From a virus (taxonomy: Duplodnaviria; Caudoviricetes), in IMG/VR virus record IMGVR_UViG_3300020044_011308, positions 5,070-69,069 of that record: a DNA stretch of 64,000 nt; one strand, written 5' to 3'. Every line of letters starts with the position of its first letter. Positions within the stretch are counted from its first letter, which is position 1. Position numbers and translations under genes: made by a program. This document shows positions 3,764 to 31,760 of the stretch, one piece after another. A model generated the notes under the pieces. That model saw only the letters and a program-made list of their open reading frames with translations. It did not search any database and was not told the origin of the DNA.

Positions 3764-3777
3764 TTTATATATTTTAT

Positions 3778-3785
3778 TATAAATA
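3778..3785 (-). promoter_or_regulatory. Class II (late-type) motif TATTTATA
   Basis: 14 nt upstream of the ATG at 3763. Confidence 0.6.
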
Positions 3786-4004
3786 TTATGAATTTTTTGC
3801 TTCGCGCAATACTATTAAAGCTTTCTGAATATATAATATGTCATCCATTTTTTCTTGGATGCTATGTTCTAGCCATTCTTCTAGTTCTAAATCGTTACGA
3901 TCTAAATCTGTTCCATACTTTTGTTTTCCAATGGTGGCTCTAGCAACAAATTTGTCTATAATGGAGTCTACAATTGAGTCTGTAACCTTAATTTCTCTAT
4001 TCAT
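3786..4004 (-). CDS. Small phage protein, possible all-alpha NTP-pyrophosphohydrolase-like
   Basis: GKQKYGTDLDR...WLEHSIQEKMDDILY; acidic helix pattern. Confidence 0.45.
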   Translation of the reverse strand: MNREIKVTDSIVDSIIDKFVARATIGKQKYGTDLDRNDLELEEWLEHSIQEKMDDILYIQKALIVLREAKNS

Positions 4005-6913: not shown

Positions 6914-8854
<1,941 letters not shown>

Positions 8855-14022: not shown

Positions 14023-14721
14023 TTAGATTTGGTGTCCGCCGTTATTTATTTTTAGTGAGTCAAAAAATTCTTTGCGTGCTTGATTATCGTTTTCCATAAA
14101 CACACCTGATGCTTTAGTTGTAACCATTGATGCTCCTTGGTGTTTAATACCACGACATGAAACACAATTGTGTGTTGCTACTACAGTTACAATTACACCT
14201 CTGTTTAATTCACAGATTTTATTTACAGCATTGTGGATAGCTGATGTTAATTGTTCTTGGATTGCTCCTCTACGGCCAAATAGCTCTACTATTCGGTTTA
14301 ATTTGGATAAGCCAATTACTCTACCTTCATCTCCTACAACATATCCAATATGTACTACTCCTCCAATTGTTTGGTGGTGGTGTGAGCACATTGAATTGAT
14401 AGGAATATTTCTTTCAATTACTATACCGTCGTATCCATCACTTGGAAATGAGGTAATATCAGACATTGCTGTATATCGACCTGCAAATAAATCAAATACA
14501 TATGCTTTTGCTACACGGCGAGGTGTTTCTGATGAATTTGGATCATTTTTCCAATCTACACCTAATGCAGTTAAAAATTGACCATAAGCAAGTTCGGCTT
14601 TATCAACCATTTCCCATTTTTCTTGTTCTGTAAGCGGGAAACCAGGTGCAACTCCATTTGCATAACCTTCTTTTACACACTCTAAATCAGTGTGATTTTT
14701 TCTACGTTTGTTTTCTGTCAT
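14023..14721 (-). CDS. folE: GTP cyclohydrolase I
   Basis: ETPRRVAK, SMCSHH, IGLSKLNR, IQEQLT, HNCVSCRG. Confidence 0.95.
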   Translation of the reverse strand: MTENKRRKNHTDLECVKEGYANGVAPGFPLTEQEKWEMVDKAELAYGQFLTALGVDWKNDPNSSETPRRVAKAYVFDLFAGRYTAMSDITSFPSDGYDGIVIERNIPINSMCSHHHQTIGGVVHIGYVVGDEGRVIGLSKLNRIVELFGRRGAIQEQLTSAIHNAVNKICELNRGVIVTVVATHNCVSCRGIKHQGASMVTTKASGVFMENDNQARKEFFDSLKINNGGHQI

Positions 14722-14730
14722 ATATTTAAA

Positions 14731-15021
14731 TTAATCTTGTATTGTAATTTTATCTATTTTATATTGTTTTTTATATCTTTCAATATACGACTTTCCTATT
14801 CCAATGTCAATGATTTCATGATCATCTGAAATAACAGGTGTATGTTTTCTGTTTGATATAATAGAATCTATTTCAAGGTTTTTATATGTGTTTAAGTAAT
14901 GTTTTTTACCTGTTGGTTTTTTATAAACAACACATATTATCATTTTTTCAGATGATGGCCTTCCAGTTCTAACAAATGTAGGTTTAGTTGTGATTTTTTT
15001 AGAAGGTCTTCCTCTTCCCAT
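14731..15021 (-). CDS. Basic protein with two AT-hook-like GRP motifs
   Basis: MGRGRPSKK...RTGRPS. Confidence 0.65.
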   Translation of the reverse strand: MGRGRPSKKITTKPTFVRTGRPSSEKMIICVVYKKPTGKKHYLNTYKNLEIDSIISNRKHTPVISDDHEIIDIGIGKSYIERYKKQYKIDKITIQD

Positions 15022-15037
15022 AACTTATTATTTTATA

Positions 15038-15068
15038 TAAATGTACAAAAATTTTTTGGATAAGCCAA
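15038..15068 (-). promoter_or_regulatory. Class I promoter TTG-N20-TACATTTA
   Basis: Exact 20-nt spacer. Confidence 0.65.
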
Positions 15069-15069
15069 A

Positions 15070-15492
15070 TTAAAATTTGTAATCTTGAATAGTATTTGAA
15101 TCTTCTCTTTCCCACGGATAAACTATCCAATCATTTGAATTCCAAATACTAGAATAAAATGTAGGTTTAAATACAGAAGTTTGAGGTTTGTAATGCAAAC
15201 ATGCAAAATTTAAATTAAATGGAAAAGCATATTCTTTTTGATGCGTTTCAAAAAAATTAGCAAATGTAACTCCACTATCGCAAATATCATCTATAATTAA
15301 TGTATTTGGGGAAATAGTTCCTTTAGTCATTGGTATTCCTAGTTTATGGGAAACCATAACCGCTGGTATAAGTCCTCCTCTCTGTAATCCAAAAATATTT
15401 TCAATTTGAATTCCTGATTGGGCAATTTGTTGGGTTAATGAATTAACTAATTCATCTATTTCATTCCAACTAACATAATGTTTTTCTATCAT
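15070..15492 (-). CDS. Type I phosphoribosyltransferase (xanthine-guanine PRTase-like)
   Basis: RGGLIPA, PRPP-binding IIDDICDSGVT, WIVYPWE. Confidence 0.9.
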   Translation of the reverse strand: MIEKHYVSWNEIDELVNSLTQQIAQSGIQIENIFGLQRGGLIPAVMVSHKLGIPMTKGTISPNTLIIDDICDSGVTFANFFETHQKEYAFPFNLNFACLHYKPQTSVFKPTFYSSIWNSNDWIVYPWEREDSNTIQDYKF

Positions 15493-16271
15493 ACCATGCG
15501 TTTTGTGTCGAAGGCAATGATGTGGTCACGCCCTGTCATATTGTATCCTTTTTCAACACACATATCAAATACAAGTGGATACATTTCAATTAATGTTTCT
15601 CTAGTATCTCCAGCAGGCATAATGTATGTTTTGTCTTTTGGAATATTAAGTTCTACTCGATACGCTTCAATAGTAGCAAGATTTTCATCTGTACCATCCC
15701 ATACTGGTTTATAGTGGTAATCTGTATGAAACTCCATCATTTGCTTAATTACAGTAGTATTAAGTCTTAATTTATTGTGTTGATCGATCATTCTTTGATC
15801 CACAATCGCTCCTTGAGGCGTAACAGCACCGAGTACGGGTATAGAATTACCAAACTTTGGACTGAGAGATATAAGGCCAATAGGATAGTCGGTAGGTACG
15901 AAATGGCTACCTTCAGTTTCAATAGTAATGAGTATATCTCTTTCATGTGCAAAGTGTGTTAATTCGTTTACTAATTTTGGATGCATAGTTGGACTTCCTC
16001 CTGTTAACATCATTTCTTTTATATGAGGATTTTCGTCATATATTTTGATAATATCGTTAAAGTTAAATGTTCCTTTCTCTGGGTGTATGCTTGTATACCA
16101 GCTGTCGCACCACCCGCCTTCTCCAAAATAGCAACGATGTGTGCATCCTGTTGTACGAACTGCAATAGTGGGTCTTCCAAAACGAGAACCCTCGCTTTGA
16201 ACACATCTATACAATTCAAGTATAGGTAATGTTTTGCTATAATCTTCTATTCTTCCTAAATTTGATTCCAT
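15489..16271 (-). CDS. queE: 7-carboxy-7-deazaguanine synthase (radical SAM)
   Basis: VQSEG, R-TTGCTHRCYFGEGGWCDS (Cx3Cx7C), LTGG, IETEG, SLSPK; clustered with queC/queD/folE. Confidence 0.9.
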   Translation of the reverse strand: MESNLGRIEDYSKTLPILELYRCVQSEGSRFGRPTIAVRTTGCTHRCYFGEGGWCDSWYTSIHPEKGTFNFNDIIKIYDENPHIKEMMLTGGSPTMHPKLVNELTHFAHERDILITIETEGSHFVPTDYPIGLISLSPKFGNSIPVLGAVTPQGAIVDQRMIDQHNKLRLNTTVIKQMMEFHTDYHYKPVWDGTDENLATIEAYRVELNIPKDKTYIMPAGDTRETLIEMYPLVFDMCVEKGYNMTGRDHIIAFDTKRMV

Positions 16272-16504
16272 AATTCTTTTACTTGTGATTCACTTAAAAC
16301 TCCTGGTTTTTTATTAACTTCTTGTCCATCCTTTAAAAATATTAAAGTAGGTATACTTCTAATATTATATTGGGTAGCTAATGTTGGATTCTGATCAACA
16401 TCTACAAATTGAACAGGAATAGAAGCACTTACACTTTCCATAATAGGTTTAAAATTTTTGCACGGTCCACACCATTCTGCAGAGAAATAAATAATTTGTT
16501 TCAT
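16256..16504 (-). CDS. Thioredoxin
   Basis: WCGPC active site, SIPT cis-Pro loop. Confidence 0.95.
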   Translation of the reverse strand: MKQIIYFSAEWCGPCKNFKPIMESVSASIPVQFVDVDQNPTLATQYNIRSIPTLIFLKDGQEVNKKPGVLSESQVKELWNQI

Positions 16505-16572
16505 TTTGTTAAAATATATTTAAATTTAATGTCACCAAAAGTGGTGGTTGTCGTATAATAATTATTGTCCAT
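16501..16572 (-). CDS. 23-aa micro-ORF MDNNYYTTTTTFGDIKFKYILTK
   Basis: Starts inside the last codons of queD and ends in an ATGA overlap with thioredoxin, filling the gap exactly. Confidence 0.5.
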   Translation of the reverse strand: MDNNYYTTTTTFGDIKFKYILTK

Positions 16573-17026
16573 AGCTTGCACTGTTTTTTTCGTGTTCATA
16601 AACTTCTACTTTTATTGCTTTTACTCTATCTTCTGTTTCTTCTTTTAAGAATGCATTGATTATATAATATAAATGTTCTGCAAATTTTTCGCATCCAGTA
16701 GCTGGGAGTATTCGTAACTGTATGATACCATCTTCATCCATTTGTTGGAATTTCTTTAAGTATGGATCATCTATAGCTACAACTGTTGTGTGGTCTAATA
16801 AAAAGGAAAAATAATCTTTTGGAGACATTCCAGAAATTTTAGTTTTAGATCGCTTCATGCCCCCAAAGTCCCATACCCAGTTTCTGTGATCTAATTCACC
16901 TTCAAACCAAACTCTAAAAGATACTGCGTATCCGTGTAGGAATCTGCAATGGGTATCTTCTGCTTTCCATTGACGGAAACAAGTTGAGTATCCATCAAAT
17001 AATTTTGTACTAGTATATTTTGCCAT
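16562..17026 (-). CDS. queD: 6-carboxy-5,6,7,8-tetrahydropterin synthase
   Basis: CRFLHGY, WVWDFG, LDH, terminal E-HEKNSA. Confidence 0.88.
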   Translation of the reverse strand: MAKYTSTKLFDGYSTCFRQWKAEDTHCRFLHGYAVSFRVWFEGELDHRNWVWDFGGMKRSKTKISGMSPKDYFSFLLDHTTVVAIDDPYLKKFQQMDEDGIIQLRILPATGCEKFAEHLYYIINAFLKEETEDRVKAIKVEVYEHEKNSASYGQ

Positions 17027-17027
17027 T

Positions 17028-17288
17028 TTAATTTATTTTATCGTAAGTTAATTCAAAGATGTCCGGTTTGCATGGATAGAATTCTCCTTTAATACCTTTT
17101 ATAACGTAATCGTTCCAAGAGATTTCCATATCTCCTTCTAAGGTTCTTATAAAATGATATAATCCCTCACCATCTGATGTTGGGGTTACTATTAAGTTAT
17201 CTCCTAACATATCATACACCTCTTGAATGTTTTGAGATATAAACTGTACTGCTTCGATCTCTACTGGTTTTTTTCTGTATTTTCCCAT
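17028..17288 (-). CDS. Conserved small phage protein
   Basis: KYRKKPVEIEAVQF...TLEG...GEFYPCKPDIFELTY, a pattern familiar from phage proteins. Confidence 0.75.
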   Translation of the reverse strand: MGKYRKKPVEIEAVQFISQNIQEVYDMLGDNLIVTPTSDGEGLYHFIRTLEGDMEISWNDYVIKGIKGEFYPCKPDIFELTYDKIN

Positions 17289-17289
17289 T

Positions 17290-17775
17290 TTAATTTATTT
17301 TTTTATTATTTTGTATTGAAAATCCATCTCCTTGGTTTCCTATCACATATCCATCAGCTTTTAAATTAACTTTAATATATTGTAACCAAATTTTATCTTT
17401 TTGACCTTCTTTTCCTGGTTTATTTGTAGCTTCAATAAATAATTGTGTAGGTTGGTATTTTTTTATAAATTCATTTATTACTTGAACAACTGTTGAAATA
17501 ATTTTAAAGAAGTGATTTAAATCGGTTTTAAATGCTTCTACACTTTGGTTATTAATTGTAAATTCAACTTCATATCCATTTGAACCTTCTTTAAATCTAT
17601 GAAATCTAACACTAATATCATTTTGTTGTTCATCTTTAAAATCGGTATAAACCATATTTCCTTTTTCACTAAATAAAAAATCTTTTTCATATGGTTGAAC
17701 ACGTTGTTCTATTTCTAAAAGTTTTTGTTCACTTTCATTTAAGTTTTGTTTATAATTTAAATATGATCTTGCCAT
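17290..17775 (-). CDS. Hypothetical protein
   Basis: 161-aa ORF; N-terminal LNE/LLE motifs. Confidence 0.7.
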   Translation of the reverse strand: MARSYLNYKQNLNESEQKLLEIEQRVQPYEKDFLFSEKGNMVYTDFKDEQQNDISVRFHRFKEGSNGYEVEFTINNQSVEAFKTDLNHFFKIISTVVQVINEFIKKYQPTQLFIEATNKPGKEGQKDKIWLQYIKVNLKADGYVIGNQGDGFSIQNNKKIN

Positions 17776-17776
17776 T

Positions 17777-18616
17777 TTAATTATTGTGTGTTTCTAAAAC
17801 TTTTGTTACTTCATTTACTACGTGTTCCCAATTTACAGGACCTGTTTCATCAGCATATCCTACAGGATCTTTTCGTCCCAATTTAATAAAAGCCTCTACA
17901 CGCTCCACGGAACTTGCTGATTTGTAATCAGAAAACCATCCGGAAGCATCAATTATATCCATACCTTCCTCGTAAGCTAGTTCGTGGTATATAGGCTTAT
18001 ATGAAGTATTTGTGCGTTTGTATACTTCGTTAAAGTTTAAGCCAAGTTCATCACATAACATTTCACCATCTTGTAAAATAGTAAATTTATCTCCTTCAAG
18101 ATATGGTGTAAAGTAACCTACTTTTTCAGATCCCCAATTTCCAATTCTAAAGGCTGTATCATCTGCATCTCTAAATTCTTGTCTACAATCTGGATAAATT
18201 GCGTGATCGCCTGCATGGATCCCCATTGCAATATCACATTGCTCATCTGTTTCATCTGCGATTGAAAGTGCTACTGCTTGGATAATTGAAGCAAATATTT
18301 TATTTCTGTTTGGAACAACTGTTGCTTTCATGTTTTCTTCAGCATAGTGTCCTTCAGGTACTTCTTCTCCACCTGTTACTAAAGCTGAGTTTAGTAGGTC
18401 AGCTAATCCATTTAATTGAATTTGACGATAACGGATTGGAGAGTAAGTTAAATTAATATAATCTACTAATGACTGTGCTCTATCTAACTCTATTCGATGT
18501 TTTTGTCCATAATCAAAAGAGATTGCTGTTACTGTATCGTACTCTTTCAAGCAACGAAGTAACAATGTTGAGGAGTCCATCCCTCCGCTAAGACTAACTA
18601 CTACATGTTTTGCCAT
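17777..18616 (-). CDS. queC: 7-cyano-7-deazaguanine (preQ0) synthase lacking the Zn cysteines
   Basis: PP-loop SGGMDS, FDYGQKH, VPNRN, YPDCR. Confidence 0.93.
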   Translation of the reverse strand: MAKHVVVSLSGGMDSSTLLLRCLKEYDTVTAISFDYGQKHRIELDRAQSLVDYINLTYSPIRYRQIQLNGLADLLNSALVTGGEEVPEGHYAEENMKATVVPNRNKIFASIIQAVALSIADETDEQCDIAMGIHAGDHAIYPDCRQEFRDADDTAFRIGNWGSEKVGYFTPYLEGDKFTILQDGEMLCDELGLNFNEVYKRTNTSYKPIYHELAYEEGMDIIDASGWFSDYKSASSVERVEAFIKLGRKDPVGYADETGPVNWEHVVNEVTKVLETHNN

Positions 18617-18771
18617 AATTCACTATTTAAATTTTTATATTCTTGTTTGGTTAATCCTTTCATTAGCATATAACATTCAAAATCTATATCTAATAATCTC
18701 CAATGAGTATACCATTCTTCTTTCCACAGTTCACGGAATTTTTCAAATTCCTGTTTTGTTAATTTATCCAT
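18601..18771 (-). CDS. 56-aa hypothetical protein (below ORF-track cutoff)
   Basis: MDKLTKQEFEKFRELWKEEWYTHWRLLDIDFECYMLMKGLTKQEYKNLNSELWQNM; fills the gap and overlaps the queC start. Confidence 0.65.
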   Translation of the reverse strand: MDKLTKQEFEKFRELWKEEWYTHWRLLDIDFECYMLMKGLTKQEYKNLNSELWQNM

Positions 18772-18773
18772 AA

Positions 18774-19031
18774 TTAAAAGGGTAAATCATCTTCATCAAT
18801 AACTCTATTAAGTGTTCCCGGTAAATCTTCTTGATGGATTGATTCTGGTTCTCTAAAATAAAAATCTAAAAAATCTTTAGGATACAAATGTACAATACCT
18901 GTATATTTTGGATTTGAGATTTCTCTTTTTTGCATTTTAACACCTGCTTGATAAGCAGCAGATGCTACTTCTTTTCCTAATTCATTACCTGCGGCTTTAC
19001 CTATGTACTCATATAAACTTAAATATTCCAT
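18774..19031 (-). CDS. Hypothetical protein with SSB-like acidic tail (DEDDLPF)
   Basis: 85-aa ORF. Confidence 0.7.
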   Translation of the reverse strand: MEYLSLYEYIGKAAGNELGKEVASAAYQAGVKMQKREISNPKYTGIVHLYPKDFLDFYFREPESIHQEDLPGTLNRVIDEDDLPF

Positions 19032-19047
19032 AACTTTTATTTTTGAT

Positions 19048-19078
19048 TAAATATACGAAAAGAAAATATGGACTCCAA
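19048..19078 (-). promoter_or_regulatory. Class I promoter TTG-N20-TATATTTA
   Basis: Exact 20-nt spacer; heads the queC-queD-queE operon. Confidence 0.7.
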
Positions 19079-19079
19079 A

Positions 19080-19874
19080 TTAAAGTCCATTTATTGTGCG
19101 AAACATTTCTACATTAAAATCTACAAGATCCTCGTTAACAAATTCTTTGCTTATATCTTGGTGTTTGTTCATATTGGCCATTGGTTTTAAATGTAATCCC
19201 ATTTTTGTATATGGCATTTCACCAATTGCTGCCATAATTGGATTTGAGGTATCAATAGATTCAATAAATGGCATATTTTTATACATTCCAAATTCAATAG
19301 GGGAAGCAGTTCCAAGTAAATGGATTCGATCTGTATTGACGATTGTTTTATCTCTAAACATGGTAGAAATTACCATGAATCTTCCAATAGCTTTACCTAA
19401 ATCTTGGTTTGGATGTGGGCAAATATCATTGTAGTATGAAGCACCATATGAAAATGCAATTTTCTTGTATCCTAAATCTTTATATGCTTGAACACATAAA
19501 TTAGCTTCGTGTAAACTTTTTGCTTGCACAACAGCTACTTTAGTTGTATTTTCTGGGAGTTGGATGTTTGCCCATTGTTTTGCATTGCGGATTGAAGCTG
19601 AATAGTCTTCCCAAACATCAGGTACAATGAATTCATTCGGTTCAAGTTTATTTGCCCAATACATTAAACGGTCTGTACTATATGCTTCTCCAAGTTCATG
19701 GAGTGAATTGTCCATTACAATATAGCGTGCTATATTTTTTGAATTTTGAAAAAATACACGATATTCTTCGTTTTCATCCATTAAATGGGGTAAACAATAA
19801 TCGTAATCGTTAAATTCTCTACTTTTTGTCAATAGACAAAATGGTACTTCGTGGCTAATTTTTACTTTTTTCAT
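19080..19874 (-). CDS. Divergent tRNA-guanine transglycosylase-fold protein (DpdA-like base exchanger candidate)
   Basis: TGT-like motif order IVMDNS, IVPDV, AVVQ, IHLLG, SIDTS; no C-terminal Zn site; adjacent to the preQ0 genes. Confidence 0.7.
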   Translation of the reverse strand: MKKVKISHEVPFCLLTKSREFNDYDYCLPHLMDENEEYRVFFQNSKNIARYIVMDNSLHELGEAYSTDRLMYWANKLEPNEFIVPDVWEDYSASIRNAKQWANIQLPENTTKVAVVQAKSLHEANLCVQAYKDLGYKKIAFSYGASYYNDICPHPNQDLGKAIGRFMVISTMFRDKTIVNTDRIHLLGTASPIEFGMYKNMPFIESIDTSNPIMAAIGEMPYTKMGLHLKPMANMNKHQDISKEFVNEDLVDFNVEMFRTINGL

Positions 19875-21843: not shown

Positions 21844-22722
21844 TTAAATTTTCTCTAAAATTTTAGGGATATCAAACATTTCCTCTAAACTGTAATATGG
21901 ACATTCATGAGTAACTCCCTCAAAAGAATAATCAAATAAATAAGCATCAATTAATTTTGTTGTATCAGTTGGGGTATTTGCAATTATGTTATTGTGAAGT
22001 GCATATCCAAAGTTTTTTGGAGAAGTTCCAATCCAAAATACTGTTGAGGGAACATTTAATGCTACTGCAGCATGTTGTAAACTAGAATCAATTAATATAC
22101 GTTTATCACTTACCGCTAACAATGTAAATAGTTCCATAGCAGATAGGGTATAGTCTAAAATTTCAGCTCCCTCAATTTTAAATGAGGTTGGTTTACATAC
22201 TTGTATAATGTGGTGGGTTTCTCTATATTTGTTAGCTATCTGGGCTGCTAGATTGAATGGGATATCTCTTGTCCAAGAATAGCCTAAATCGCTATTTAAT
22301 ATGCCTCCGTTAGTTTGGATTAATAGAATTGGTTTTTCTCGATTCCATTTTGTAGCATTTAATTGATGTATAAAATTAAAATTTAAAACAGGGGATTGGT
22401 TTTTGTATTCAATATCTAATATTTTACACCAATTTGCAATTAGATGTTTGTTTTTTAATATATGTTGTGTTTCATAGTATGGTTCATGTTTAAATACTAT
22501 TGTATCTTTATTTTTAATGTAGTCATCGTAAAAATATTGAGTTGAACCTAATCTATATACTCTGTAAACTGATGGCAAATTTAAAAATATTTCAGGGTAT
22601 GAAGCTACTACAACTATTTTCCTTTCTGGGTGTTTTTCTTTTAAACTACTTAATAATGATGTAGCAGCAATGTTTTTTCCTAGGCCACCTTCAATGTGCC
22701 AAACTATGTATTTTTCTTCCAT
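21844..22722 (-). CDS. GT9-like (heptosyltransferase-fold) glycosyltransferase
   Basis: GGLGKNIA (compare xxLGD) and DSSLQHAAVALNVPSTVFW (compare DSGxxHxAxA). Confidence 0.75.
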   Translation of the reverse strand: MEEKYIVWHIEGGLGKNIAATSLLSSLKEKHPERKIVVVASYPEIFLNLPSVYRVYRLGSTQYFYDDYIKNKDTIVFKHEPYYETQHILKNKHLIANWCKILDIEYKNQSPVLNFNFIHQLNATKWNREKPILLIQTNGGILNSDLGYSWTRDIPFNLAAQIANKYRETHHIIQVCKPTSFKIEGAEILDYTLSAMELFTLLAVSDKRILIDSSLQHAAVALNVPSTVFWIGTSPKNFGYALHNNIIANTPTDTTKLIDAYLFDYSFEGVTHECPYYSLEEMFDIPKILEKI

Positions 22723-22725
22723 TTT

Positions 22726-23172
22726 TTATTTTTTTGATCCTATTCTAATGTACTTATACCAAACACGTTCGTGAAAGAAATAAATTACAGGTTTAAGTAC
22801 TAATTCACCTACTCCAAGCATAGATGAAACTTCTAAAGAAGCACCTAAAGAATAAGCTATTATTACTGTAGTTAATGTACCTAAAATACGATACGATATT
22901 GTTTTTAGTATGTGTCGAGTCATCACTGATTCCTCTTTAATAGTTACTATGTATGCTATATTATTTTTAATACTAACATACCCCTCACAGCTAATATGCC
23001 ATTTGTAATCTTTGATATCTTGCATCCAATCTTTAGAAGTGGATGTGTGTCCATCTACTACAATGTTAGATACTAAAATTTCTTCACCATCGGTAATCAA
23101 TCTCCAACGATCTTCTTCGCATGTAGATACTGTGTTAAATCTAATCTGGAATTGCTTTGACTTTGTATTCAT
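22726..23172 (-). CDS. DUF2061-like membrane domain protein
   Basis: RHILKTISYRILGT...YFFHERVW. Confidence 0.75.
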   Translation of the reverse strand: MNTKSKQFQIRFNTVSTCEEDRWRLITDGEEILVSNIVVDGHTSTSKDWMQDIKDYKWHISCEGYVSIKNNIAYIVTIKEESVMTRHILKTISYRILGTLTTVIIAYSLGASLEVSSMLGVGELVLKPVIYFFHERVWYKYIRIGSKK

Positions 23173-23573
23173 AACTTTCCTTCTTTACGCATTTGTTCTC
23201 TAACTTTTGTTGCTGAAATATCGTGTATTTCTTGAGGTGGTGTATGTTCAATAATATCATAGCCAACTCCTCTACCAAATTCAACTGAGCATATGTCAGG
23301 GATAATACTAACTTTAACTTTACCTTGTCCACAAAGTTCTTTATATTCGTTTTCAATATTTTCAAGTACTTCTTGAGCATTAAATGGGTTGGATTCTGTT
23401 GTTTCAACATCTCTGATTGCAATCCAAACATTTTTACCTTCATTTAAAGCTTGTTGAAATAATGCTTTATGCCCATCATGTAGTGGTTGCCAACGACCAA
23501 TAAACATTGCATATTGATTCGGTTTAGATTCTAGGGATGATTGTACGTGTACTTTTTTACTCCAATTTTTCAT
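23169..23573 (-). CDS. HxGH (cytidylyltransferase-like) nucleotidyltransferase
   Basis: FIGRWQPLHDGH, NPF, ISATKVRE; ATGA-coupled to cysC. Confidence 0.85.
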   Translation of the reverse strand: MKNWSKKVHVQSSLESKPNQYAMFIGRWQPLHDGHKALFQQALNEGKNVWIAIRDVETTESNPFNAQEVLENIENEYKELCGQGKVKVSIIPDICSVEFGRGVGYDIIEHTPPQEIHDISATKVREQMRKEGKL

Positions 23574-23995
23574 AACTTTATAATTTTGTTTATACAATTT
23601 TCAACTGAAATGTTTGTTGTATCTATGTTGATATAATTTGATGTAGGGGGTTGATAATCTTTTACGTGAAAATTTTCTCTGCCTCTGATATCTGTTGTAT
23701 GAACATAAATCTCTTGAATTAAATCTCCAAGTTTTTCTTTAAATTCTTCTCTTTGATCTTTATATGGAGAAACTAAAGAAACAACTACATTACATTCTTT
23801 TTTAGATAGGAAATGGGATATATGTTGAGCTAAAGCAATATTTTTACGGCGTCCATCTTCGCTATAATCTTTATTATCAAATATATCTCGTAAATCATCA
23901 CCATCTATGTGAAATGTATTTTCTAATTGCTGTTTTAACGCGCTTGCTAAAACTGTTTTTCCAGCTCCTGGCTGGCCTGTAAACCAATAAATCAT
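23570..23995 (-). CDS. cysC: Adenylylsulfate (APS) kinase
   Basis: WFTGQPGAGKT, IDGDDLR, YSEDGR, SLVSPY, YQPP. Confidence 0.88.
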   Translation of the reverse strand: MIYWFTGQPGAGKTVLASALKQQLENTFHIDGDDLRDIFDNKDYSEDGRRKNIALAQHISHFLSKKECNVVVSLVSPYKDQREEFKEKLGDLIQEIYVHTTDIRGRENFHVKDYQPPTSNYINIDTTNISVENCINKIIKL

Positions 23996-24003
23996 AACCT
24001 TTT

Positions 24004-24825
24004 TTAAATATAATTAAATGCTTTAAAATACCAATCGTAATGTTGTTTTAATCGATCACTTTGTTCTTGACCTAAAATTTCAATGTAATCATCTTTTACT
24101 GGTTTTATTTGAGGTTGTATTTTGTGGTCTCCAAACATACCATGTATAATATCATTTTCTTGGGTTAATTGTTCAACATTATTAAAATCGTGTTTAAAAT
24201 ATGGCAATTCTAAATAATTGTATACTCTTTTAATTTCTGTTTCTGGATCAGTAGTAAAATCTTCAAAACGGATAAATAAAATATCTTTATCTAATCCTCT
24301 ATGAACAACATCTGCTAACCATTCCATTGAAGGACCAATTGGAGGAGCAACCGAAAAATGATCTATACGAGAAACTGTAGTCATATTTTTCAATTCAACA
24401 TTATTGATAATAAGTGAATCTTTATCTGGGTTTTTACGTAGGTTTTTTTCCATTGAAGCAAATACCGCTCTTAAGTCTCGCACCATGCATATGATTTTAG
24501 GTTTTTCTTCATTGAAGAATTCAAGAAAATCATAATGGCCTAACCATCCTCTACTTTTTTCCATTACGTAAGGACGATCTGTTATTTCTTCAAAGAAACC
24601 GTGCAATCCGTATTTGCAAAAACCTTTAAAACCATTTTTCATAGTTTCAGCATCTTGTGCTTTAAAGGCATCTCCTGTTGTATAAATAGTTCTTGCGTTT
24701 AACAAAAATTCTATTATACCTGAAGTTGGAGTTGAGTAAATTTCAGGGTTTTGCATCATTACATTTTGTAATAATGTAGATCCCGCCCGTGGGAGGGATG
24801 CATTGTAAAATATTTTTTTATCCAT
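24004..24825 (-). CDS. PAPS-dependent sulfotransferase
   Basis: 5'-PSB loop SLPRAGSTLL, 3'-PB motif RDLRAVFAS, RFEDF. Confidence 0.88.
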   Translation of the reverse strand: MDKKIFYNASLPRAGSTLLQNVMMQNPEIYSTPTSGIIEFLLNARTIYTTGDAFKAQDAETMKNGFKGFCKYGLHGFFEEITDRPYVMEKSRGWLGHYDFLEFFNEEKPKIICMVRDLRAVFASMEKNLRKNPDKDSLIINNVELKNMTTVSRIDHFSVAPPIGPSMEWLADVVHRGLDKDILFIRFEDFTTDPETEIKRVYNYLELPYFKHDFNNVEQLTQENDIIHGMFGDHKIQPQIKPVKDDYIEILGQEQSDRLKQHYDWYFKAFNYI

Positions 24826-24891: not shown

Positions 24892-25167
24892 TTATACTTC
24901 TTCAGTTTCTATATCTTCTATAATAGGTTCTGCAGTGTATGAATTTCCATTTGCTATACAACTATTAATATCTGTTAATTGTTGTTGTGTTAATGCCTCT
25001 AAAAACCATTCTTTTGATAACATTATTTCTAAATGTTGGACATTTCTTGTAACGGTAGATTTGTTATTATCATTTACTATTTCTAAAATAGTATTGTTAA
25101 TTAAATTAACTGAATCAAAAGCTGCACTTATTGATTGTTGAGGGTCTTGTGTGTTTAATTCTTCCAT
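24892..25167 (-). CDS. Hypothetical protein (fibre-associated)
   Basis: 91-aa ORF downstream of the fibre genes. Confidence 0.65.
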   Translation of the reverse strand: MEELNTQDPQQSISAAFDSVNLINNTILEIVNDNNKSTVTRNVQHLEIMLSKEWFLEALTQQQLTDINSCIANGNSYTAEPIIEDIETEEV

Positions 25168-25897: not shown

Positions 25898-28846
25898 TTA
25901 TCCTGTCACAGCCCATCCTTTTGCTGTTGCAATTGAGGGAGTATCATTTGCTGCTCCCCAGTTACCAGTAACCGTGATGGTTTTTCCTGCACCGGTTGCA
26001 GATGCATTAGTATAAATTTCATCTAATGCTGTTGAATCTAAATTATTGTTTGAAACATCAAAACTAGCATTCATTCCCGTAGCGCGCATTCTTTTTAAGT
26101 TATTTCCGCCAAAGGCACCAATAGTTGTACTAGAAGTCATATTTAATGCTGGGATTTCAATCATAGTACCGTTGGTGAACATTCCAGTAAAAGTAGTTCC
26201 ACGAGATGTGTCTATTAGTGGAATATTTTTTAGTGATGAGCATTGGGAGAATAAATTGGAAAAATCAGTTGCTCGAGATGTATTAAAACCACCAACAGTT
26301 GTTAATGAGGTGCAACTTGCAAACATACCACTTACAGATGTAGCTGCTGAAAGGTCTAAATAGGGTACTGATATTAATGATTGGCAACCATTAAACATGT
26401 TAGTTACACCTGTAGTAGTACATTTAGATAAATTAAAAAATGGTACATCTGTAAGTGCATTACAACTAGAAAACATATATTGCACATTAGTAGCTTCTCC
26501 TAAATCATAAGCAGGAGCTTTTAGTAATGCAGTACAACCATTAAACATAAAACTAAAATTTGTTCCTTTGGATGTGTTAAAAAATGGAAATTCTCGTATA
26601 AAAACACCGGAAAACATACTACTAAAATTAGTTCCATTAGAAGTTTCAAGTGGTGGAATAGATGCTAAGTTAGGACTACTACTAAACATACTACTAAAAT
26701 CTGTATTTCTAGCAAAATTTAATTGTGGTACAGATGTTAAGCTATTGCAAAAAGCAAATAATGATCCTGCGGTTGTCACATTTATTGTATCAAACGGTAG
26801 TACATTTACTAAACGTTTACATTGTTGAAACATTGCAGTTATATTTGTTAAACTTCGTGTATTTGTAAGTCTTGGGGAAATTTTAATTGCAGTATTGTTA
26901 AACATAAAACCAGCGTTTGTACATGCTGTAAGATCCATTGTTAATGGTACTGATTCTAATTGGTAGCAGTTGTTGAATGTTTGTGCAAAAGATGTAACTT
27001 TTGAAGTACTACCAATAAATTTAACTTGTTTTAAATTATAGCAATTTTGAAATGTGCCATTAAAAGTAGTGTTATTACTAGTATTTATGGGTGGGAGTGT
27101 TGGTAAAGAATAACAATTATTAAATGTATTTTGATAATTTGTACTAGCACTACTAAATGTAGCGGCTATTGATTGAAGATTGTTACATGCATTAAAAGTG
27201 GAGGTCCAAGTTGTTACTTTTTGAGAATTTAATAGTGTTATTGTTCTAAGATTAAAGCAACTGTTAAATGTTGAAATAGCACTTGTTGCGTTAGTCCAAT
27301 CTAATGGAGGTAGTTTTCTTAAATTAGGACAACTTGAAAACGTGGTGGAAAAGTTACTACCGCTTGTTGTATAAAGAGATACAACTTCTACTAAACTATT
27401 ACAATTATTAAAAACGTTTTGAAAATCTGTTATTCTATTTGACCCAGAATACTCAAATCTTTCTAACTCCTTTGGTATTAAGAAAGAAGCGCCACTAGAT
27501 CCTACCAATAGTGTTTGAACTTGATCACCGGCCATTTTAATTGATCTCCAACCACTAGTTCCTCCGTTAACTAAGGATCCTGTTGGTGGTGTTGGTCGAG
27601 TGGTAAGAGTAACAGAACTAAAACTTGTAGCACTGCCTGATAAGGTTACATTAATTAACGCTGGTTTGTATAACTCAGTAACTGAGTATATAGAGCTTGT
27701 TAAGGCTGCAAATGAAGCAGTTGTATATTGTTTTGACCCAGTTACATTTGAATTATAATTGTTTGAAGTACCATCCCCCCAATCAACTGAGTATCCTCCA
27801 CCTCCATTTGTTGAAATTTGTAAACCAACAAAATTTGAGTTATTGTTATAAACACCATACCATGCCACTATTTGATTATTAGATACTGCAGGTAGTGGTG
27901 GCAAACCGCCGCTTATGTTAATTGAGGGTGCAGTTGAAAAACGTGATGAACCAGATGTAACAGATATTGATGATACTGCATTTCCAGATAATACTGCAGA
28001 TGCTGATGTGTATTGTGGGGCTGATCCTTGTATTTGTACGGTTGGTGGTGTAGTGTATCCGCCACCCCCATTTGTAACACCAATAGAATCTATTCCGGCT
28101 ATAAGAGATGATGATATAACTGCTCCAGTACCAGTAGGAGTGGTTATTGTTAAAGTTGGGTTTGAAGTATATCCTCTACCATTACGTAATACCGGTACTA
28201 ATACAGCGTGTGTTCCTCCAGCTGCTAGCCCTCCACCGGTTACTGTTATTGTTGGAAAGGCTGATGTAATGTAATTGCTACCCGATGTTACTATTGTAAC
28301 AGATGTTACCTTTCCATTTGTTATTGCCGCTGACCCAGTTGCGGTTTTAAGGGGTCTCCAAGTAGGATTGGTTGTAGGGGTTGAAAAAGTTAATGTTGGT
28401 GCTGAGGTGTATGGTCCTCCTCCATCCGCTATAATTACATCTTGAATTGAGTAGAAGGGAGTAACTGCAGTTATAATACCGCTGCTAATAGTAGCTACAA
28501 ATGCTGCGGCATCTTCACCTCCTCCATTAGAAAAACTCATTGTAACGTTTAAGTTACTAGCAGGATATCCTGTACCACCACTGTATAATATCATATTAGA
28601 TATTGACCCGTTTGATAATGACGCGGTTGCAAGTGAACCAGAACCTCCACCGGTTGATATAGATTCAGTTAAAAGTGGTCTTGTATCAACAAACGTAGGA
28701 CTTGACATTAGATTTGTGTCATTAGAATATGCATCATATTGTGTAAGATATCTAGTATCAAAATTTTTATTTCTAGATATTATACCTTGATTATCAAGTC
28801 CTAGTGTTGGATTACCTATATATCCGTTATTGTCTTTTTTAGCCAT
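25898..28846 (-). CDS. Putative tail fibre/receptor-binding protein: GGxGY repeats plus BspA/DUF285-like LRR solenoid
   Basis: N-terminal repeats (GGTGY, GGGGYTTPPTV); C-terminal ~22-24-aa repeats T-x-x-T-x-F-x-x-MF-x-x-C-x-x-L. Confidence 0.75.
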   Translation of the reverse strand: MAKKDNNGYIGNPTLGLDNQGIISRNKNFDTRYLTQYDAYSNDTNLMSSPTFVDTRPLLTESISTGGGSGSLATASLSNGSISNMILYSGGTGYPASNLNVTMSFSNGGGEDAAAFVATISSGIITAVTPFYSIQDVIIADGGGPYTSAPTLTFSTPTTNPTWRPLKTATGSAAITNGKVTSVTIVTSGSNYITSAFPTITVTGGGLAAGGTHAVLVPVLRNGRGYTSNPTLTITTPTGTGAVISSSLIAGIDSIGVTNGGGGYTTPPTVQIQGSAPQYTSASAVLSGNAVSSISVTSGSSRFSTAPSINISGGLPPLPAVSNNQIVAWYGVYNNNSNFVGLQISTNGGGGYSVDWGDGTSNNYNSNVTGSKQYTTASFAALTSSIYSVTELYKPALINVTLSGSATSFSSVTLTTRPTPPTGSLVNGGTSGWRSIKMAGDQVQTLLVGSSGASFLIPKELERFEYSGSNRITDFQNVFNNCNSLVEVVSLYTTSGSNFSTTFSSCPNLRKLPPLDWTNATSAISTFNSCFNLRTITLLNSQKVTTWTSTFNACNNLQSIAATFSSASTNYQNTFNNCYSLPTLPPINTSNNTTFNGTFQNCYNLKQVKFIGSTSKVTSFAQTFNNCYQLESVPLTMDLTACTNAGFMFNNTAIKISPRLTNTRSLTNITAMFQQCKRLVNVLPFDTINVTTAGSLFAFCNSLTSVPQLNFARNTDFSSMFSSSPNLASIPPLETSNGTNFSSMFSGVFIREFPFFNTSKGTNFSFMFNGCTALLKAPAYDLGEATNVQYMFSSCNALTDVPFFNLSKCTTTGVTNMFNGCQSLISVPYLDLSAATSVSGMFASCTSLTTVGGFNTSRATDFSNLFSQCSSLKNIPLIDTSRGTTFTGMFTNGTMIEIPALNMTSSTTIGAFGGNNLKRMRATGMNASFDVSNNNLDSTALDEIYTNASATGAGKTITVTGNWGAANDTPSIATAKGWAVTG

Positions 28847-28853
28847 ATCGTTA

Positions 28854-31760
28854 TTACATTAAAAAATAAAACTGTGCTTCAACAGATGTTGTGTCACCTC
28901 CACCACCTCCACCATTTAATGCAAATGATGCCGTTAACGCGTATGAAGCACTTACAACAGTTCCACTAAAAAATGAAGCCGTTTGAGCATATGAAGCACT
29001 TACAACAGTTCCACTAAAAAATGAAGCCGTTTGAGCATTTTGAACGAATGATGCTGTTTGTGCATATGAAGCAGTTGTTACTGTGCCTTGCAATGACCCG
29101 GTAAATCCTGCAGTTGAAGTAATACTTCCACTAAATATTGCGGGACCTATGTTTGTAAATGTACCTGATCCAGATACTATTAAAGATCCTGTAATTTGTA
29201 CTTGAGAACCTGAAGCAAAGATTAGATTTGATCTAGTAGAGTTTGATGTACCATTTCCTACTATAAATGCACTTTGAGCTGATGATGATTGGTTAAATTG
29301 ACCTTGTACATGTTGATAATTTCCTTGTGCTATTGTGTTATTACCTTCTGCGTGTGAATAATATCCTTGTGCTAATGTACCATAACCTTCTGCGTGTGAA
29401 GCAAGTCCAATTGTTGTTGTAGATTCACCTTCTGCGTGTGAATAGTTTCCTATAGGATAATTAGCTCCTGCTGGTTGGGGAGTACCAAAAATACCTATAA
29501 CTAATGCAGTACTGGTTGTATCAATTGTAGTATCAAAAAGGGTTACTTCGGTATATTCATCAATTCCTCCAGTAATATATATTGATGATGAAACTTGAGC
29601 TTTAATTACGCTAGGTGTTCCATTAATGAGTCCAGCGGTATCATCGAATAATGCAAATGAACTTGAAGTAAAGATAGAAGTTAAATCACCATATGCTGGG
29701 GCTAATGAAAATACTCCTGCGGTTACACCAGTTGCTCCAGAAAAATAACCGTAGTATCCTGCTGTTGTAGTATTTCCTTGTGCGTGTGAAGCGTTTCCAT
29801 TTGTTACACCAGTACCTTGATTTAAAGAACCTTGTAGAGTTAAATAACCTTGAATTATTTGATTACTAGTAAAAGTGTTGGGAGATCCAACTAGTGCAAA
29901 TAATGAGGCATTTAAAACGGTTTGTGCAACTGTTGCATATGAAGCACTTATAGCATTTAAAACGTATGAAGCAGTTTGTGCTGTTCTTACAAATGAAGCA
30001 GTTGAAGCAAAGCTTGAACTTATAGCATTTTGAACATATGAAGCAGTTTGAGCATTTTGAACGTAAGATGCTGTTTGAGCATTTTGAACATATGAGGCCG
30101 TTTGAGCATTTTGAACGTAAGATGCTGTTTGAGCATTTTGAACGTAAGATGCTGTTGAAGCAAAACTTGAACTTATAGCATTTTGTACAAATGAAGCCGT
30201 TTGAGCATTTTGAACGTAAGATGCTGTTGAAGCAAAACTTGAACTTATTGCATTTTGAACGTAAGATGCTGTTTGAGCATTTTGAACATATGAGGCCGTT
30301 TGAGCATTTTGAACGTAAGATGCTGTTTGAGCATTTTGTACAAATGATGCTGTTGAAGCAAAGCTTGAACTTATAGCATTTTGAACGTATGAAGCCGTTT
30401 GAGCATTTTGGACATATGAGGCCGTTTGAGCATTTTGAACGTAAGATGCTGTTTGAGCATATGAAGCACTTACAACAAATGAAGCTGTTTGAGCATTTTG
30501 TACAAATGATGCTGTTGAAGCAAAGCTTGAACTTATAGCATTTTGGACATATGAAGCCGTTTGAGCATTTTGTACAAATGAAGCCGTTTGAGCATTTTGA
30601 ACGTATGAAGCCGTTTGAGCATTTTGAACAAATGAAGCCGTTTGAGCATATGAAGCACTTATAACAGTTCCATCAAAATATGAAGCCGTTAAAGCAAAAC
30701 TTGAACTTATAGCATTTATAGCATTTGATATTGAACCGCTAAAATATGAAGCAGTTTGTGCTATTTCAACATATGAAGCCGTTTGAGCATATGAAGCACT
30801 TATAGCATTTATAGCATTTGATATTGAACCGCTAAAATATGAAGCAGTTTGTGCTATTTCAACATATGAAGCACTTGTTGCGTATGATGCACTAGTAACT
30901 GATCCTAATAAAGTTTGAGCTGTTAAAGCATATGAAGCAGTTGTTGCATATGATGCACTTGCGGAGGAAGTAGGTAAAGATACATAATCCTGTGGAGAGA
31001 ATTTCATAATCCAATCACCTCCTGATGTTGTATTTTTATAGTAGGTATATCCTAAAACTCTAACTATATTTAGTGAGGATGTTGGGGGAGTACAGTCCAT
31101 TACACCTACTCCATTTTCTTGTAAATATATTGGGGCCCCTCCTATATGACCTGCTATATAAGGACCAAAAGTTCCATAATCATCATGTACTACTAATTCT
31201 CCTTCTAATAATACAAGATTACCCGGAAGCCAAATACCTAAAACATATGTAGCTTGGGTTGATTTTGTAGATACTGGGTTCCAAGTAAATGTATCTTTAT
31301 CATAGGCTACAACATTATATAAAGCGGCTGAGGATGAACCTTGAATTGTTTTTCCTGCATATGATGATGTTGCAGAAAAAATATTTTGAGTAATGTCTAC
31401 AATTTCACTTGTATAGTATACAGGAGAAATAAGATTTAAATCATTTTGCCAATTTAATACTCTATTACCACCTGTAGATACTAGGACTCTTCCTCCCCAA
31501 TCTATACTTCCAACACCATATTGATCTGTTAAATTTAAACTTTCCCAAGATAACACAGCAGTTCCTGCACGATTATATAAAAATCTATTAGTAGTATCAA
31601 TACCATCAATTACAGTACTTTGTAAAGTAATTACGTTTGTTGAAGGTATATTTTTTTCTGTAGAATATACATTAGGATCAGGAGAAAATTCAGTGGATCC
31701 ATTTTCGTTTATAGTTTGAACCCATTGAATTTGAATTATTCTTGAATTTTTTTCAGCCAT
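28854..31760 (-). CDS. Putative tail fibre/adhesin with AQTASYVQN repeats and SHAEG (YadA/Hep_Hag-like) repeats
   Basis: 968-aa ORF; visible repeats; TATTTATA upstream. Confidence 0.75.
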   Translation of the reverse strand: MAEKNSRIIQIQWVQTINENGSTEFSPDPNVYSTEKNIPSTNVITLQSTVIDGIDTTNRFLYNRAGTAVLSWESLNLTDQYGVGSIDWGGRVLVSTGGNRVLNWQNDLNLISPVYYTSEIVDITQNIFSATSSYAGKTIQGSSSAALYNVVAYDKDTFTWNPVSTKSTQATYVLGIWLPGNLVLLEGELVVHDDYGTFGPYIAGHIGGAPIYLQENGVGVMDCTPPTSSLNIVRVLGYTYYKNTTSGGDWIMKFSPQDYVSLPTSSASASYATTASYALTAQTLLGSVTSASYATSASYVEIAQTASYFSGSISNAINAISASYAQTASYVEIAQTASYFSGSISNAINAISSSFALTASYFDGTVISASYAQTASFVQNAQTASYVQNAQTASFVQNAQTASYVQNAISSSFASTASFVQNAQTASFVVSASYAQTASYVQNAQTASYVQNAQTASYVQNAISSSFASTASFVQNAQTASYVQNAQTASYVQNAQTASYVQNAISSSFASTASYVQNAQTASFVQNAISSSFASTASYVQNAQTASYVQNAQTASYVQNAQTASYVQNAQTASYVQNAISSSFASTASFVRTAQTASYVLNAISASYATVAQTVLNASLFALVGSPNTFTSNQIIQGYLTLQGSLNQGTGVTNGNASHAQGNTTTAGYYGYFSGATGVTAGVFSLAPAYGDLTSIFTSSSFALFDDTAGLINGTPSVIKAQVSSSIYITGGIDEYTEVTLFDTTIDTTSTALVIGIFGTPQPAGANYPIGNYSHAEGESTTTIGLASHAEGYGTLAQGYYSHAEGNNTIAQGNYQHVQGQFNQSSSAQSAFIVGNGTSNSTRSNLIFASGSQVQITGSLIVSGSGTFTNIGPAIFSGSITSTAGFTGSLQGTVTTASYAQTASFVQNAQTASFFSGTVVSASYAQTASFFSGTVVSASYALTASFALNGGGGGGDTTSVEAQFYFLM
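29930..30960 (-). repeat. Intragenic tandem repeats (27-nt AQTASYVQN units interspersed with AISSSFASTAS units)
   Basis: Near-identical units such as ttgagcattttgaacgtaagatgctgt recur; a longer SYVEIAQTASYFSGSISNAINAIS block is duplicated. Confidence 0.9.

Follow-up and report, generated by a model that had tools for sequence, protein, structure and literature searches.

A widespread phage gene cassette encoding a sulfotransferase, an APS kinase and a candidate miniature ATP sulfurylase

We describe a five-gene cassette located at positions 21844-24825 of a 64,000-nucleotide stretch of viral DNA (hereafter the window), which is part of the 69-kb IMG/VR record IMGVR_UViG_3300020044_011308 (CheckV completeness 43%). 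The cassette encodes a sulfotransferase, a predicted adenosine 5'-phosphosulfate (APS) kinase of reduced size, a small nucleotidyltransferase with an HxGH motif (hereafter NT), a protein with a DUF2061 domain, and a GT9-like glycosyltransferase. The analysis confirmed that it is a real, widespread and coherent unit, which most likely makes its own donor of sulfate, PAPS (3'-phosphoadenosine 5'-phosphosulfate), and uses it. NT is probably a miniature ATP sulfurylase; this is the best-supported reading, and it is drawn entirely from comparative genomics.

The five genes (protein lengths in amino acids, aa) are as follows.

24004..24825, minus strand: sulfotransferase, 273 aa (PF13469/PF00685)
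23570..23995, minus strand: predicted shortened APS kinase, 141 aa (PF01583, TIGR00455, conserved motifs)
23169..23573, minus strand: HxGH nucleotidyltransferase (NT), 134 aa, candidate miniature ATP sulfurylase (PF01467, context, phyletic pattern)
22726..23172, minus strand: two-part DUF2061 protein, 148 aa (PF09834)
21844..22722, minus strand: predicted GT-B glycosyltransferase of the GT9 fold, 292 aa (predicted fold)

The tight packing noted in the preliminary description of this DNA was borne out by the list of open reading frames (ORFs) and by direct reading: from 24825 to 21844 the genes are separated by 8 nt, -4 (ATGA), -4 (ATGA) and 3 nt, and both ATGA overlaps were read directly. Four of the five proteins pass their Pfam thresholds, the GT9-like protein being the exception. 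A scan of IMG/VR for relatives of NT yielded at least 596 viral stretches encoding one, and the best 80 loci were analysed. An APS-kinase gene adjoins NT in 78 of them, DUF2061 follows NT in 46, a sulfotransferase of the window type is present in 32 and a GT9-like gene also in 32 (as well as in two of the 45 loci of the genome survey described below). All five families occur together in 28/80 loci, in several gene orders, and the arrangement is therefore not a product of chance; stable membership combined with shuffled order argues for a functional unit.

We propose that the encoded proteins act in four steps. NT would transfer the adenylyl group of ATP to sulfate, yielding APS and pyrophosphate, and would thus join the ATP sulfurylases as a third kind, very small and descended from a NadM-like adenylyltransferase. 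The shortened kinase, judging by its family and conserved residues, would phosphorylate the 3'-hydroxyl group of APS to give PAPS, from which the sulfotransferase, in keeping with its family, would move sulfate to an acceptor. The GT9-fold enzyme might build or extend this acceptor (a protein sugar or a lipid-linked glycan), which is the most tentative of the four steps, and the DUF2061 protein would be an accessory membrane component. The equilibrium of the ATP sulfurylase reaction is very unfavourable, and APS kinase must pull it forward; this requirement fits the overlapping stop and start codons of the two genes in the window and the protein fusions found elsewhere.

NT contains the motifs GRWQPLHDGH, NP, IPD, GRGVGY and ISATKVR and passes the PF01467 threshold (E 4.5e-7; 30.6 bits, cut-off 21); by sequence, it is a member of the HxGH nucleotidyltransferase superfamily. 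Its ATG start (23573) is favoured over an alternative TTG at 23597 (which would give 142 aa), because most of the homologues listed are 133-134 aa long. The residues H32 and H35 of the HxGH motif and S120 and R125 of the ISxTxxR motif are invariant in 35 aligned NT sequences, as is a G100-R101 loop in the part of NT that differs from the nicotinamide mononucleotide (NMN) adenylyltransferases (NMNATs) of the NadM type. Sat, the classical ATP sulfurylase, belongs to the same superfamily, and adenylyl transfer to an oxyanion is the type of reaction which this superfamily performs.

Both sequence and fold identify the NadM/archaeal NMNATs (NF002243, TIGR01527; 2qjt, 2qjo, 1f9a, 1ej2) as the nearest family. 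The AlphaFold model of NT (predicted local distance difference test score, pLDDT, 90.9) has phosphopantetheine adenylyltransferase and NMNAT as its best, though weak, Foldseek matches in the PDB (E about 3e-3 (2.6e-3), template modelling (TM) score about 0.47, over about 75-80 residues). The nearest sequence relatives are NadM-type enzymes (NCBIfam NF002243 at 1.9e-8; PDB 2qjt at 1.8e-10, followed by 1f9a and 1ej2), which have the motifs GRxQPxHxGH, NPF/Y-T and C-terminal S-x-T-x-x-R in common with NT, and weak tblastn matches of NT fall in phage NadM/Nudix genes. The scores remain far below the curated NMNAT cut-offs (34.1 versus 127 bits for NF002243 and 30.9 versus 181.2 for TIGR01527), and the alignment is limited to the N-terminal ATP-binding half (query positions about 6-65). 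NT is about 35-50 residues shorter than the archaeal NMNATs (168-181 aa), and the part of these enzymes without a counterpart in NT presumably holds the NMN pocket; moreover, the partners of NT are sulfur genes rather than NAD genes.

The NT family comprises 5532 proteins of 78-249 aa (E <= 0.001) plus 339 longer ones, with 100 cluster representatives at E <= 1e-30. No family-specific model for NT was found among its Pfam, NCBIfam and PHROG matches. The PHROG that covers it is phrog_10255 (labelled "kinase"), which corresponds to the fused form discussed below, and the stand-alone protein is named adenylylsulfate kinase, FAD synthase or NMN adenylyltransferase in JGI annotation.

As judged by its profile scores and residues, the 141-aa protein encoded next to NT is an APS kinase, shortened. 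It passes PF01583 (E 3.3e-16; 60.1 bits, cut-off 21.1; profile positions 4-110 of 152), falls below the CysC equivalog model TIGR00455 (72.3 versus 138.7 bits) and matches an archaeal APS kinase in the PDB (8a8h, 3.9e-13). An alignment including three canonical CysC proteins revealed the invariant residues G7, G12, K13, D31, D33, R36, R49, N52, P77, R82 and R104. The P-loop, the DGD..R, R..N and SP motifs and the lid arginine are all kept; canonical CysC has about 14 residues more in its lid. The predicted complex of APS kinase and NT (score 0.00, mark 0.32) weighs neither for nor against their association.

The partnership of NT with APS kinase extends far beyond viruses. We surveyed 45 NT loci from 43 NT-bearing genomes, and an APS-kinase gene lies beside or near NT in 38 of these loci (36 recognized by BLAST, and L023 and L043 by Pfam); in 36 of the 38, it is adjacent, overlapping or fused to NT. 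The partner at most loci is the shortened kinase. Canonical CysC takes its place in L008, L009, L014, L023, G005 and G225 (PF01583 E 1.5e-67 to 5.9e-71 where scored), which indicates that NT is linked with APS-kinase function and not with one particular protein. Fusions were found in both orders: APS kinase-NT in L010, L036 and L043, and NT-APS kinase in L039-L042. Cultured haloarchaea of the genera Haladaptatus, Halorarum, Natronococcus, Halalkalicoccus, Haloprofundus and Halopelagius encode 285-aa fusions of canonical CysC with NT, which NCBI annotates as plain "adenylyl-sulfate kinase". Among the best 150 NT cluster representatives, 51 are at least 240 aa long, and five of the ten long representatives that were scanned contain a full APS-kinase domain (PF01583, E 1e-40 to 1e-68). 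Fused forms are also encoded by Xylella phage Sano and Stenotrophomonas phage DLP_6.

Several further features of these loci were recorded. In phage Sano (gp33-gp35; L001:4555-6324), the fused kinase-NT gene (gp35) is preceded by a NADAR-domain gene (gp34) and by the gene of a 195-aa protein, whose Sulfotransfer_4 match is weak (E 4e-4) and does not reach the cut-off. One Marinimicrobia single-cell genome assembly carries at least three NT loci on three contigs (L014, L023 and L029), and in L014 a second, inverted copy of NT lies directly downstream of the first. In many of the long proteins P0122-P0145 (278-326 aa), NT is preceded by about 190 aa of unrelated, cysteine-rich sequence. This N-terminal region resembles a homing endonuclease by eye in P0122 and P0128, and P0142 has a NUMOD3 domain (PF07460), which suggests that these forms are mobile endonuclease genes inserted just 5' of NT, or merged gene calls.

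A second line of evidence comes from the enzymes that are missing. The claim that no canonical ATP sulfurylase accompanies the cassette held for the viral DNA, since searches of the 69-kb record with PF01747 (Sat) and TIGR02039 (CysD) returned nothing. Among the 43 NT-bearing genomes, Sat was found in two, CysD in six and neither in 35; one of these 35 is a 0.97-Mb record titled as a chromosome (L020/G001). We next consider the bacterial order to which this genome belongs, as represented by 101 genomes at least 80% complete. APS kinase was detected in 70 of them, Sat in 58, CysD in two and NT in seven. In all seven NT-positive genomes an APS-kinase gene adjoins NT, and none has Sat or CysD, whereas 58 of the 63 NT-negative genomes with a kinase have one or the other (57 Sat, one CysD only; Fisher test among kinase-bearing genomes, p = 6.6e-7). 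As for the five remaining NT-negative genomes, two have fragmentary kinase matches, which span 43 and 33 of the 152 profile positions, and the match of another is devoid of the first 25 positions. In the Sat-bearing relatives, Sat adjoins CysC on the contig or the two are joined in one open frame of about 570-600 aa. NT thus occupies the place of Sat beside the kinase in the NT-positive genomes of this order.

Sulfotransferase genes are the recurrent neighbours of the kinase-NT pair. Sulfotransfer_5 genes occur in 17 of the 45 genome loci, in bacteria, among genes for GDP-mannose dehydratase, UDP-glucose dehydrogenase, GT4 glycosyltransferases and Wza-like export proteins; L004 has two sulfotransferases and an ABC ATPase near NT, and L037 one sulfotransferase. 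Haloarchaeal megaplasmids show the order sulfotransferase, small ORF, cysC::NT and a gene of the YqcI/YcgG family. This block was seen in Haladaptatus pallidirubidus and Halostagnicola larsenii (L128:8531-11627 and L129:8518-11628), with a sulfotransferase of 407 aa, the fusion annotated as plain cysC and, in the Haladaptatus record, an annotated 53-aa ORF after the sulfotransferase. The cysC::NT fusion was also present in eight further haloarchaeal plasmid records.

A number of observations weigh against the identification of NT as an ATP sulfurylase serving sulfation. No ATP sulfurylase appears among the Foldseek PDB matches listed for NT (to rank 50), and NT stays below the Sat model PF01747 (16.2 bits, E 0.0074; cut-off 24.3). 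An hhalign comparison of NT with 12 Sat domains gave a probability of 60%, out of register, with only the C-terminal SxTKxRE stretch in common. There is no APS kinase near NT in seven of the 45 genome loci, and three Marinoscillum loci have a TerB-like gene upstream of NT in place of the kinase. By BLAST, 31 of the 80 viral loci show the kinase-NT pair alone, and a DNA methylase gene lies downstream of NT in about 30, probably largely in the pair-only group; five large pair-only contigs contained no PF13469 match and, in two cases, a weak PF00685 match. Sat or CysD is also present in eight of the 43 NT-bearing genomes, for most of which completeness is not given. Finally, each of the seven NT-positive genomes in this order measures about 1 Mb, and together they may form one clade or represent one event, so that the Fisher test overstates independence. 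The last reservation is softened by the fact that the pattern spans Bacteroidota, Planctomycetota, Verrucomicrobiota, Patescibacteria, Omnitrophota and others.

Since NT fails PF01747 and its profile alignment with Sat is out of register, NT is, by these sequence comparisons, not in the Sat family, and the hhalign alignment was rejected as evidence of homology. The preliminary description had presented the 134-aa HxGH protein as a minimal ATP sulfurylase: neighbourhoods, fusions and the missing-gene pattern make it the best candidate for this role. The likeness to Sat and Sat-CysC PAPS synthases (PF01747; NF004040) lies in the proposed reaction, in two histidines three residues apart, in an SxTKxRE-like C-terminal stretch and in genetic logic, as both NT and Sat adjoin or fuse with APS kinase. 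The differences are equally clear. NT has 112-134 residues, as against the open frames of about 380-400 aa of stand-alone Sat genes, and the sequence contexts QTRNP and GRDHAG of Sat are absent from it, the loop GRGVGY (GRDVGY in the haloarchaeal P0188) being no more than reminiscent of these contexts.

Some of the points listed above would suit an alternative in which the product of NT and the kinase resembles PAPS but donates a group other than sulfate. A precedent exists in the capsule phosphoramidate pathway of Campylobacter jejuni, in which the nucleotide product of a nucleotidyltransferase is phosphorylated by a CysC-like kinase. The low TIGR00455 score and shortened lid of the kinase, the fact that NT is not a Sat, and the approximately 30 viral loci with a downstream DNA methylase and no recognized sulfotransferase within 5 kb are all compatible with such a scheme. 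We consider it unlikely, because in several genomes the protein that accompanies NT or is fused to it is a canonical CysC with a full score, sulfotransferase-fold genes are the recurrent third partner, and the distribution of NT complements that of Sat and CysD specifically; furthermore, a glutamine-kinase-like or amidohydrolase partner was not found in the neighbour clusters scanned.

It is likewise improbable that NT, as the partner of the kinase, has a regulatory role or no catalytic activity, with APS supplied by the host or by another route, e.g. an APS reductase working in reverse. The eight NT-bearing genomes that keep Sat or CysD could be read in this way, and the host of the phage may have its own ATP sulfurylase. 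However, the catalytic residues of the HxGH and ISxTxxR motifs are invariant across 35 diverged sequences, and 35 of the 43 genomes show no canonical enzyme.

The presence of NT and a GT9-like gene in one cassette could also mean that the GT9-fold transferase depends on NT for activation of a sugar phosphate, in the manner of the adenylyltransferase half of HldE, which yields ADP-heptose, while APS comes from the host. The matched GT9 enzymes use ADP-heptose, according to their entry titles, and domain II of HldE is itself a small PF01467 protein. This seems very unlikely, since the constant partner of NT is APS kinase (78/80 viral loci) and not the GT9-like gene (32/80 viral and 2/45 genome loci), genes for a heptose isomerase, kinase or phosphatase were not found among the neighbours scanned, and the fusions scanned are mainly to APS kinase (five of the ten long forms). 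Equally remote is the idea that NT is a small NMNAT of NAD salvage and the P-loop kinase acts on nucleosides, an arrangement like that of the bifunctional enzymes of the NadR type. The NMNATs that NT matches best in sequence and its weak matches in phage NadM/Nudix genes agree with this, but the scores are far below the curated cut-offs and confined to the ATP-binding N-terminal half, the partner is an APS kinase by Pfam and conserved residues (and often a canonical CysC), and the neighbours are sulfotransferase and polysaccharide genes, not NAD genes.

We return to NT as a candidate ATP sulfurylase and to the proteins that would use its product. The 273-aa sulfotransferase passes both PF13469 (E 9.8e-14; 52.6 bits, threshold 27) and PF00685 (E 7.8e-12; 45.6 bits, threshold 22), and it is the only PF13469 match in the viral record. 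Residues P12, R13, G15, S16 and T17 (the PRAGST stretch), R116 and S124 are invariant in the family alignment, and we take the N-terminal PRAGST stretch to be the 5'-phosphosulfate-binding loop. The best matches of the family profile among solved structures are the protein-tyrosine sulfotransferases (TPSTs; 5wri, 3ap1), i.e. TPST1 (1.2e-11) and TPST2 (3.9e-07), followed by the natural-product enzymes CurM sulfotransferase (3.6e-06) and StaL (2.1e-04). The TPST matches do not fix the acceptor, because their best stretches are confined to profile positions 5-124, the N-terminal half with the invariant PRAGST.

A second group of viral loci shows a different organization, in which the gene order is DUF3310, APS kinase, NT and methylase. 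A gene for an N6/N4 DNA methylase (PF01555) directly follows NT in about 30 of the 80 loci (e.g. L074, L095, L098, L099, L109 and L114), and a DUF3310 gene is present in 26, in L074 directly before the kinase gene. No sulfotransferase of the window type was found within 5 kb of the pair-only loci; weak Sulfotransfer_1 ORFs lie a few kb away in two of the five large pair-only contigs.

The DUF2061 protein matches PF09834 over residues 88-138 (E 6.2e-16; 59 bits, threshold 23.1), which form a predicted membrane domain, while its soluble N-terminal part (approximately residues 1-80) belongs to no known family. The two parts are separate ORFs at other loci, and a search for longer relatives gave a single match, P0121, where a fibre-like C-terminus follows the N-terminal part. 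This N-terminal part behaves as an optional module. In related strains, as represented in three runs of RNA libraries, 17 nt replace the 251 nt at 22918-23168, which encode this part. PF09834 was present in 98-100% of the members of the DUF2061 Atlas clusters, and only viral clusters of the same family were found. DUF2061 was rejected as a general partner of sulfate activation, as just two of the 101 genomes sampled from the order have it, neither being one of the seven that are NT-positive; the sole match above the cut-off is on a contig other than that carrying Sat in the same genome. Its absence from the seven NT-positive genomes makes the DUF2061 protein an accessory component, perhaps, as we can only guess, a membrane anchor or a sulfate-related channel.

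The last gene had been described as GT9-like, and the predicted fold substantiates this description although the sequence lies below the Pfam threshold (PF01075, E 0.064; 13 bits, cut-off 22). A profile of 23 sequences reaches only E 2.1 against WaaF (1psw), pairing a C-terminal stretch with the nucleotide-sugar half of that enzyme. For the AlphaFold model (pLDDT 87.9), all 12 Foldseek PDB matches listed through rank 13 are GT9 enzymes, headed by 3tov (1.5e-10, TM 0.65), then WaaF 1psw and WaaC, which are heptosyltransferases of LPS, and TibC, which is one of protein. The predicted fold is thus like that of the GT9 heptosyltransferases (3tov, 1psw, 2h1h, 4rb4; TM 0.55-0.65, E 1.5e-10 to 4.5e-7), with a sequence identity of 12-14%. 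The Atlas clusters of this family are all viral.

Regarding the interpretation previously offered for this DNA, the candidate sulfurylase, the supply of PAPS and the GT9 fold were thus retained, and two other elements were not. The GT4 enzyme suggested as a further partner corresponds to two PF00534 matches at positions 3623-4000 and 5021-5179 of the record, more than 20 kb from the cassette. Modified DNA bases, suggested as one possible sulfate acceptor, are disfavoured, because deazaguanine genes accompany the cassette in just one of the 80 viral loci (L124). The acceptor may be either a virion protein or the host envelope. In favour of a virion target, the cassette lies among tail or fibre genes in the window and close to tail-sheath genes (within 5 kb) in 17 other loci, TibC, one of the GT9-fold matches, modifies protein, and the sulfotransferase is TPST-like. 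In addition, a fibre-like protein of 968 aa (window 28854-31760) contains 23 QTAS[YF] units, and a region of about 390 residues in it is nearly free of charged residues and contains 20% Ser, 20% Ala, 10% Thr and 7% Tyr. In favour of the host envelope, polysaccharide loci are where the module is found in cellular genomes.

This repeat fibre was considered as a constant companion of the cassette and rejected, since it occurs in three of 38 viral records (L048, L065 and L106, all of which bear the cassette) and in none of the five complete records, which counts against a virion target. Its relatives have open frames of 1829-2372 aa in two of the 38 records, and the third record gave a short match cut off at the end. 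By tblastn, neither fibre of the window was found within 5 kb of the cassette at any of the 80 viral loci. It is conceivable, although on balance we doubt it, that the phage sulfates its own virion (sulfated sugars or sulfotyrosine, e.g. on the Ser/Thr/Tyr-rich fibre 4 kb away) by means of an ATP sulfurylase of about 110-130 residues and TPST-like and TibC-like enzymes. If this were true, a bacterial virus would make a sulfated particle with a pathway of its own, and phage "cysC" genes would be sulfation genes and not sulfur-assimilation genes.

A functional parallel is provided by rhizobia, in which NodPQ, homologues of CysDN/CysC, serve the sulfotransferase NodH (or NoeE). There, as in the cassette, a private copy of the sulfate-activation machinery lies beside a sulfotransferase that decorates a glycan. 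The cassette differs in that its candidate first enzyme is of another family and the whole set is borne by a virus.

Phage-encoded cysC has been reported by Chen and Banfield (Nat Microbiol 2024, PMC10914622), whose main text describes 62 cysC genes in freshwater phage genomes (these genomes being significantly larger), transcribed above non-phage cysC at some sampling points and interpreted in terms of assimilatory sulfate reduction. The words "sulfotransferase" and "sulfurylase" have no occurrences in that main text. The DNA of our window likewise comes mainly from freshwater, river, lake and estuary samples; in contrast to the reading given there, the kinase considered here would perform one step within a cassette for sulfation, which also encodes a candidate ATP sulfurylase. 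In the open full-text literature we found no paper that describes a sulfation cassette in a phage, or that connects sulfate activation with a small nucleotidyltransferase or with DUF2061; full-text searches outside subscription journals and supplements are therefore consistent with the view that the system is undescribed.

If NT is an ATP sulfurylase, it would be a third, non-orthologous sulfate-activating enzyme, about one-third the size of stand-alone Sat. It would fill an apparent gap in genomes which have APS kinase and sulfotransferases and lack Sat and CysDN, namely those of streamlined marine bacteria, Bacteroidota, Planctomycetota and haloarchaea, and would correct the NCBI and JGI annotation of the fused and stand-alone forms. 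Viral "cysC" auxiliary genes would then have to be read differently in sulfur-cycle surveys, and phage sulfation of the virion or the host surface would be a widespread trait, considering that at least 596 viral stretches encode NT. Such a protein would also be a very small part for enzymatic PAPS regeneration.

The window has a GC content of about 31%, and its large ORFs are all on the minus strand. PHROG matches to tail sheath, DNA polymerase, clamp loader, DnaB-like helicase and UvsX-like recombinase, as well as to ribonucleotide reductase, GroEL and a deazaguanine gene set, indicate a phage of the large myovirus type. The cassette is situated within 5 kb of tail-sheath and adjacent tail genes in 17 of the 80 viral loci. 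The deazaguanine DNA-modification set (window 14023-19874) includes GTP cyclohydrolase, QueE-like, QueD-like and QueC-like genes and a 264-aa ORF (phrog_19058), which may be a transglycosylase.

One more gene may share the transcription unit of the cassette in this lineage, and lies 5' of the sulfotransferase gene:

24892..25167, minus strand: 91-aa ORF (phrog_7607, E 0.0012)

Its family is found inside the cassette in four of the 80 viral loci (L049, L061, L090 and L097). The region around the cassette is co-directional throughout, with AT-rich upstream gaps of 66 nt and 129 nt. A scan for sigma-70 promoters gave 34 sites, compared with 27.6 +/- 5.1 expected, and the promoter and terminator scan of the region thus revealed no enrichment. 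Four metatranscriptome runs yielded contigs, 90-99% alike, that extend over parts of each of the five genes and across gene junctions (e.g. 23361-24666 in X16, and 22661-22917 plus 23169-24042 in X17); they do not prove an operon, because a single transcript is not demonstrable from contigs and carry-over of DNA is possible.

Near-identical DNA was found mainly in freshwater, river, lake and estuary metagenomes, and at least half of the sampled words of the stretch were present in 14 DNA runs from nine studies. A megablast search of the region against cultured phages gave no match. The five-gene set occurs also on two contigs of metagenome-assembled genomes, assigned to Sediminibacterium (L003) and a Flavobacteriaceae bacterium (L007), where it adjoins DUF285-repeat proteins resembling a 982-aa protein of the window. 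Both contigs look like related phages, which hints at Bacteroidota as the host group of the window phage. The 982-aa protein has C-terminal repeats and is encoded at window 25898-28846; its counterparts lie at L007:7912-11211 and L003:11327-12412, and that of L007 matches PF03382 (DUF285) in 13 stretches. The window also encodes a GroEL-like chaperonin at 6914-8557 (phrog_5725, 2.9e-147).

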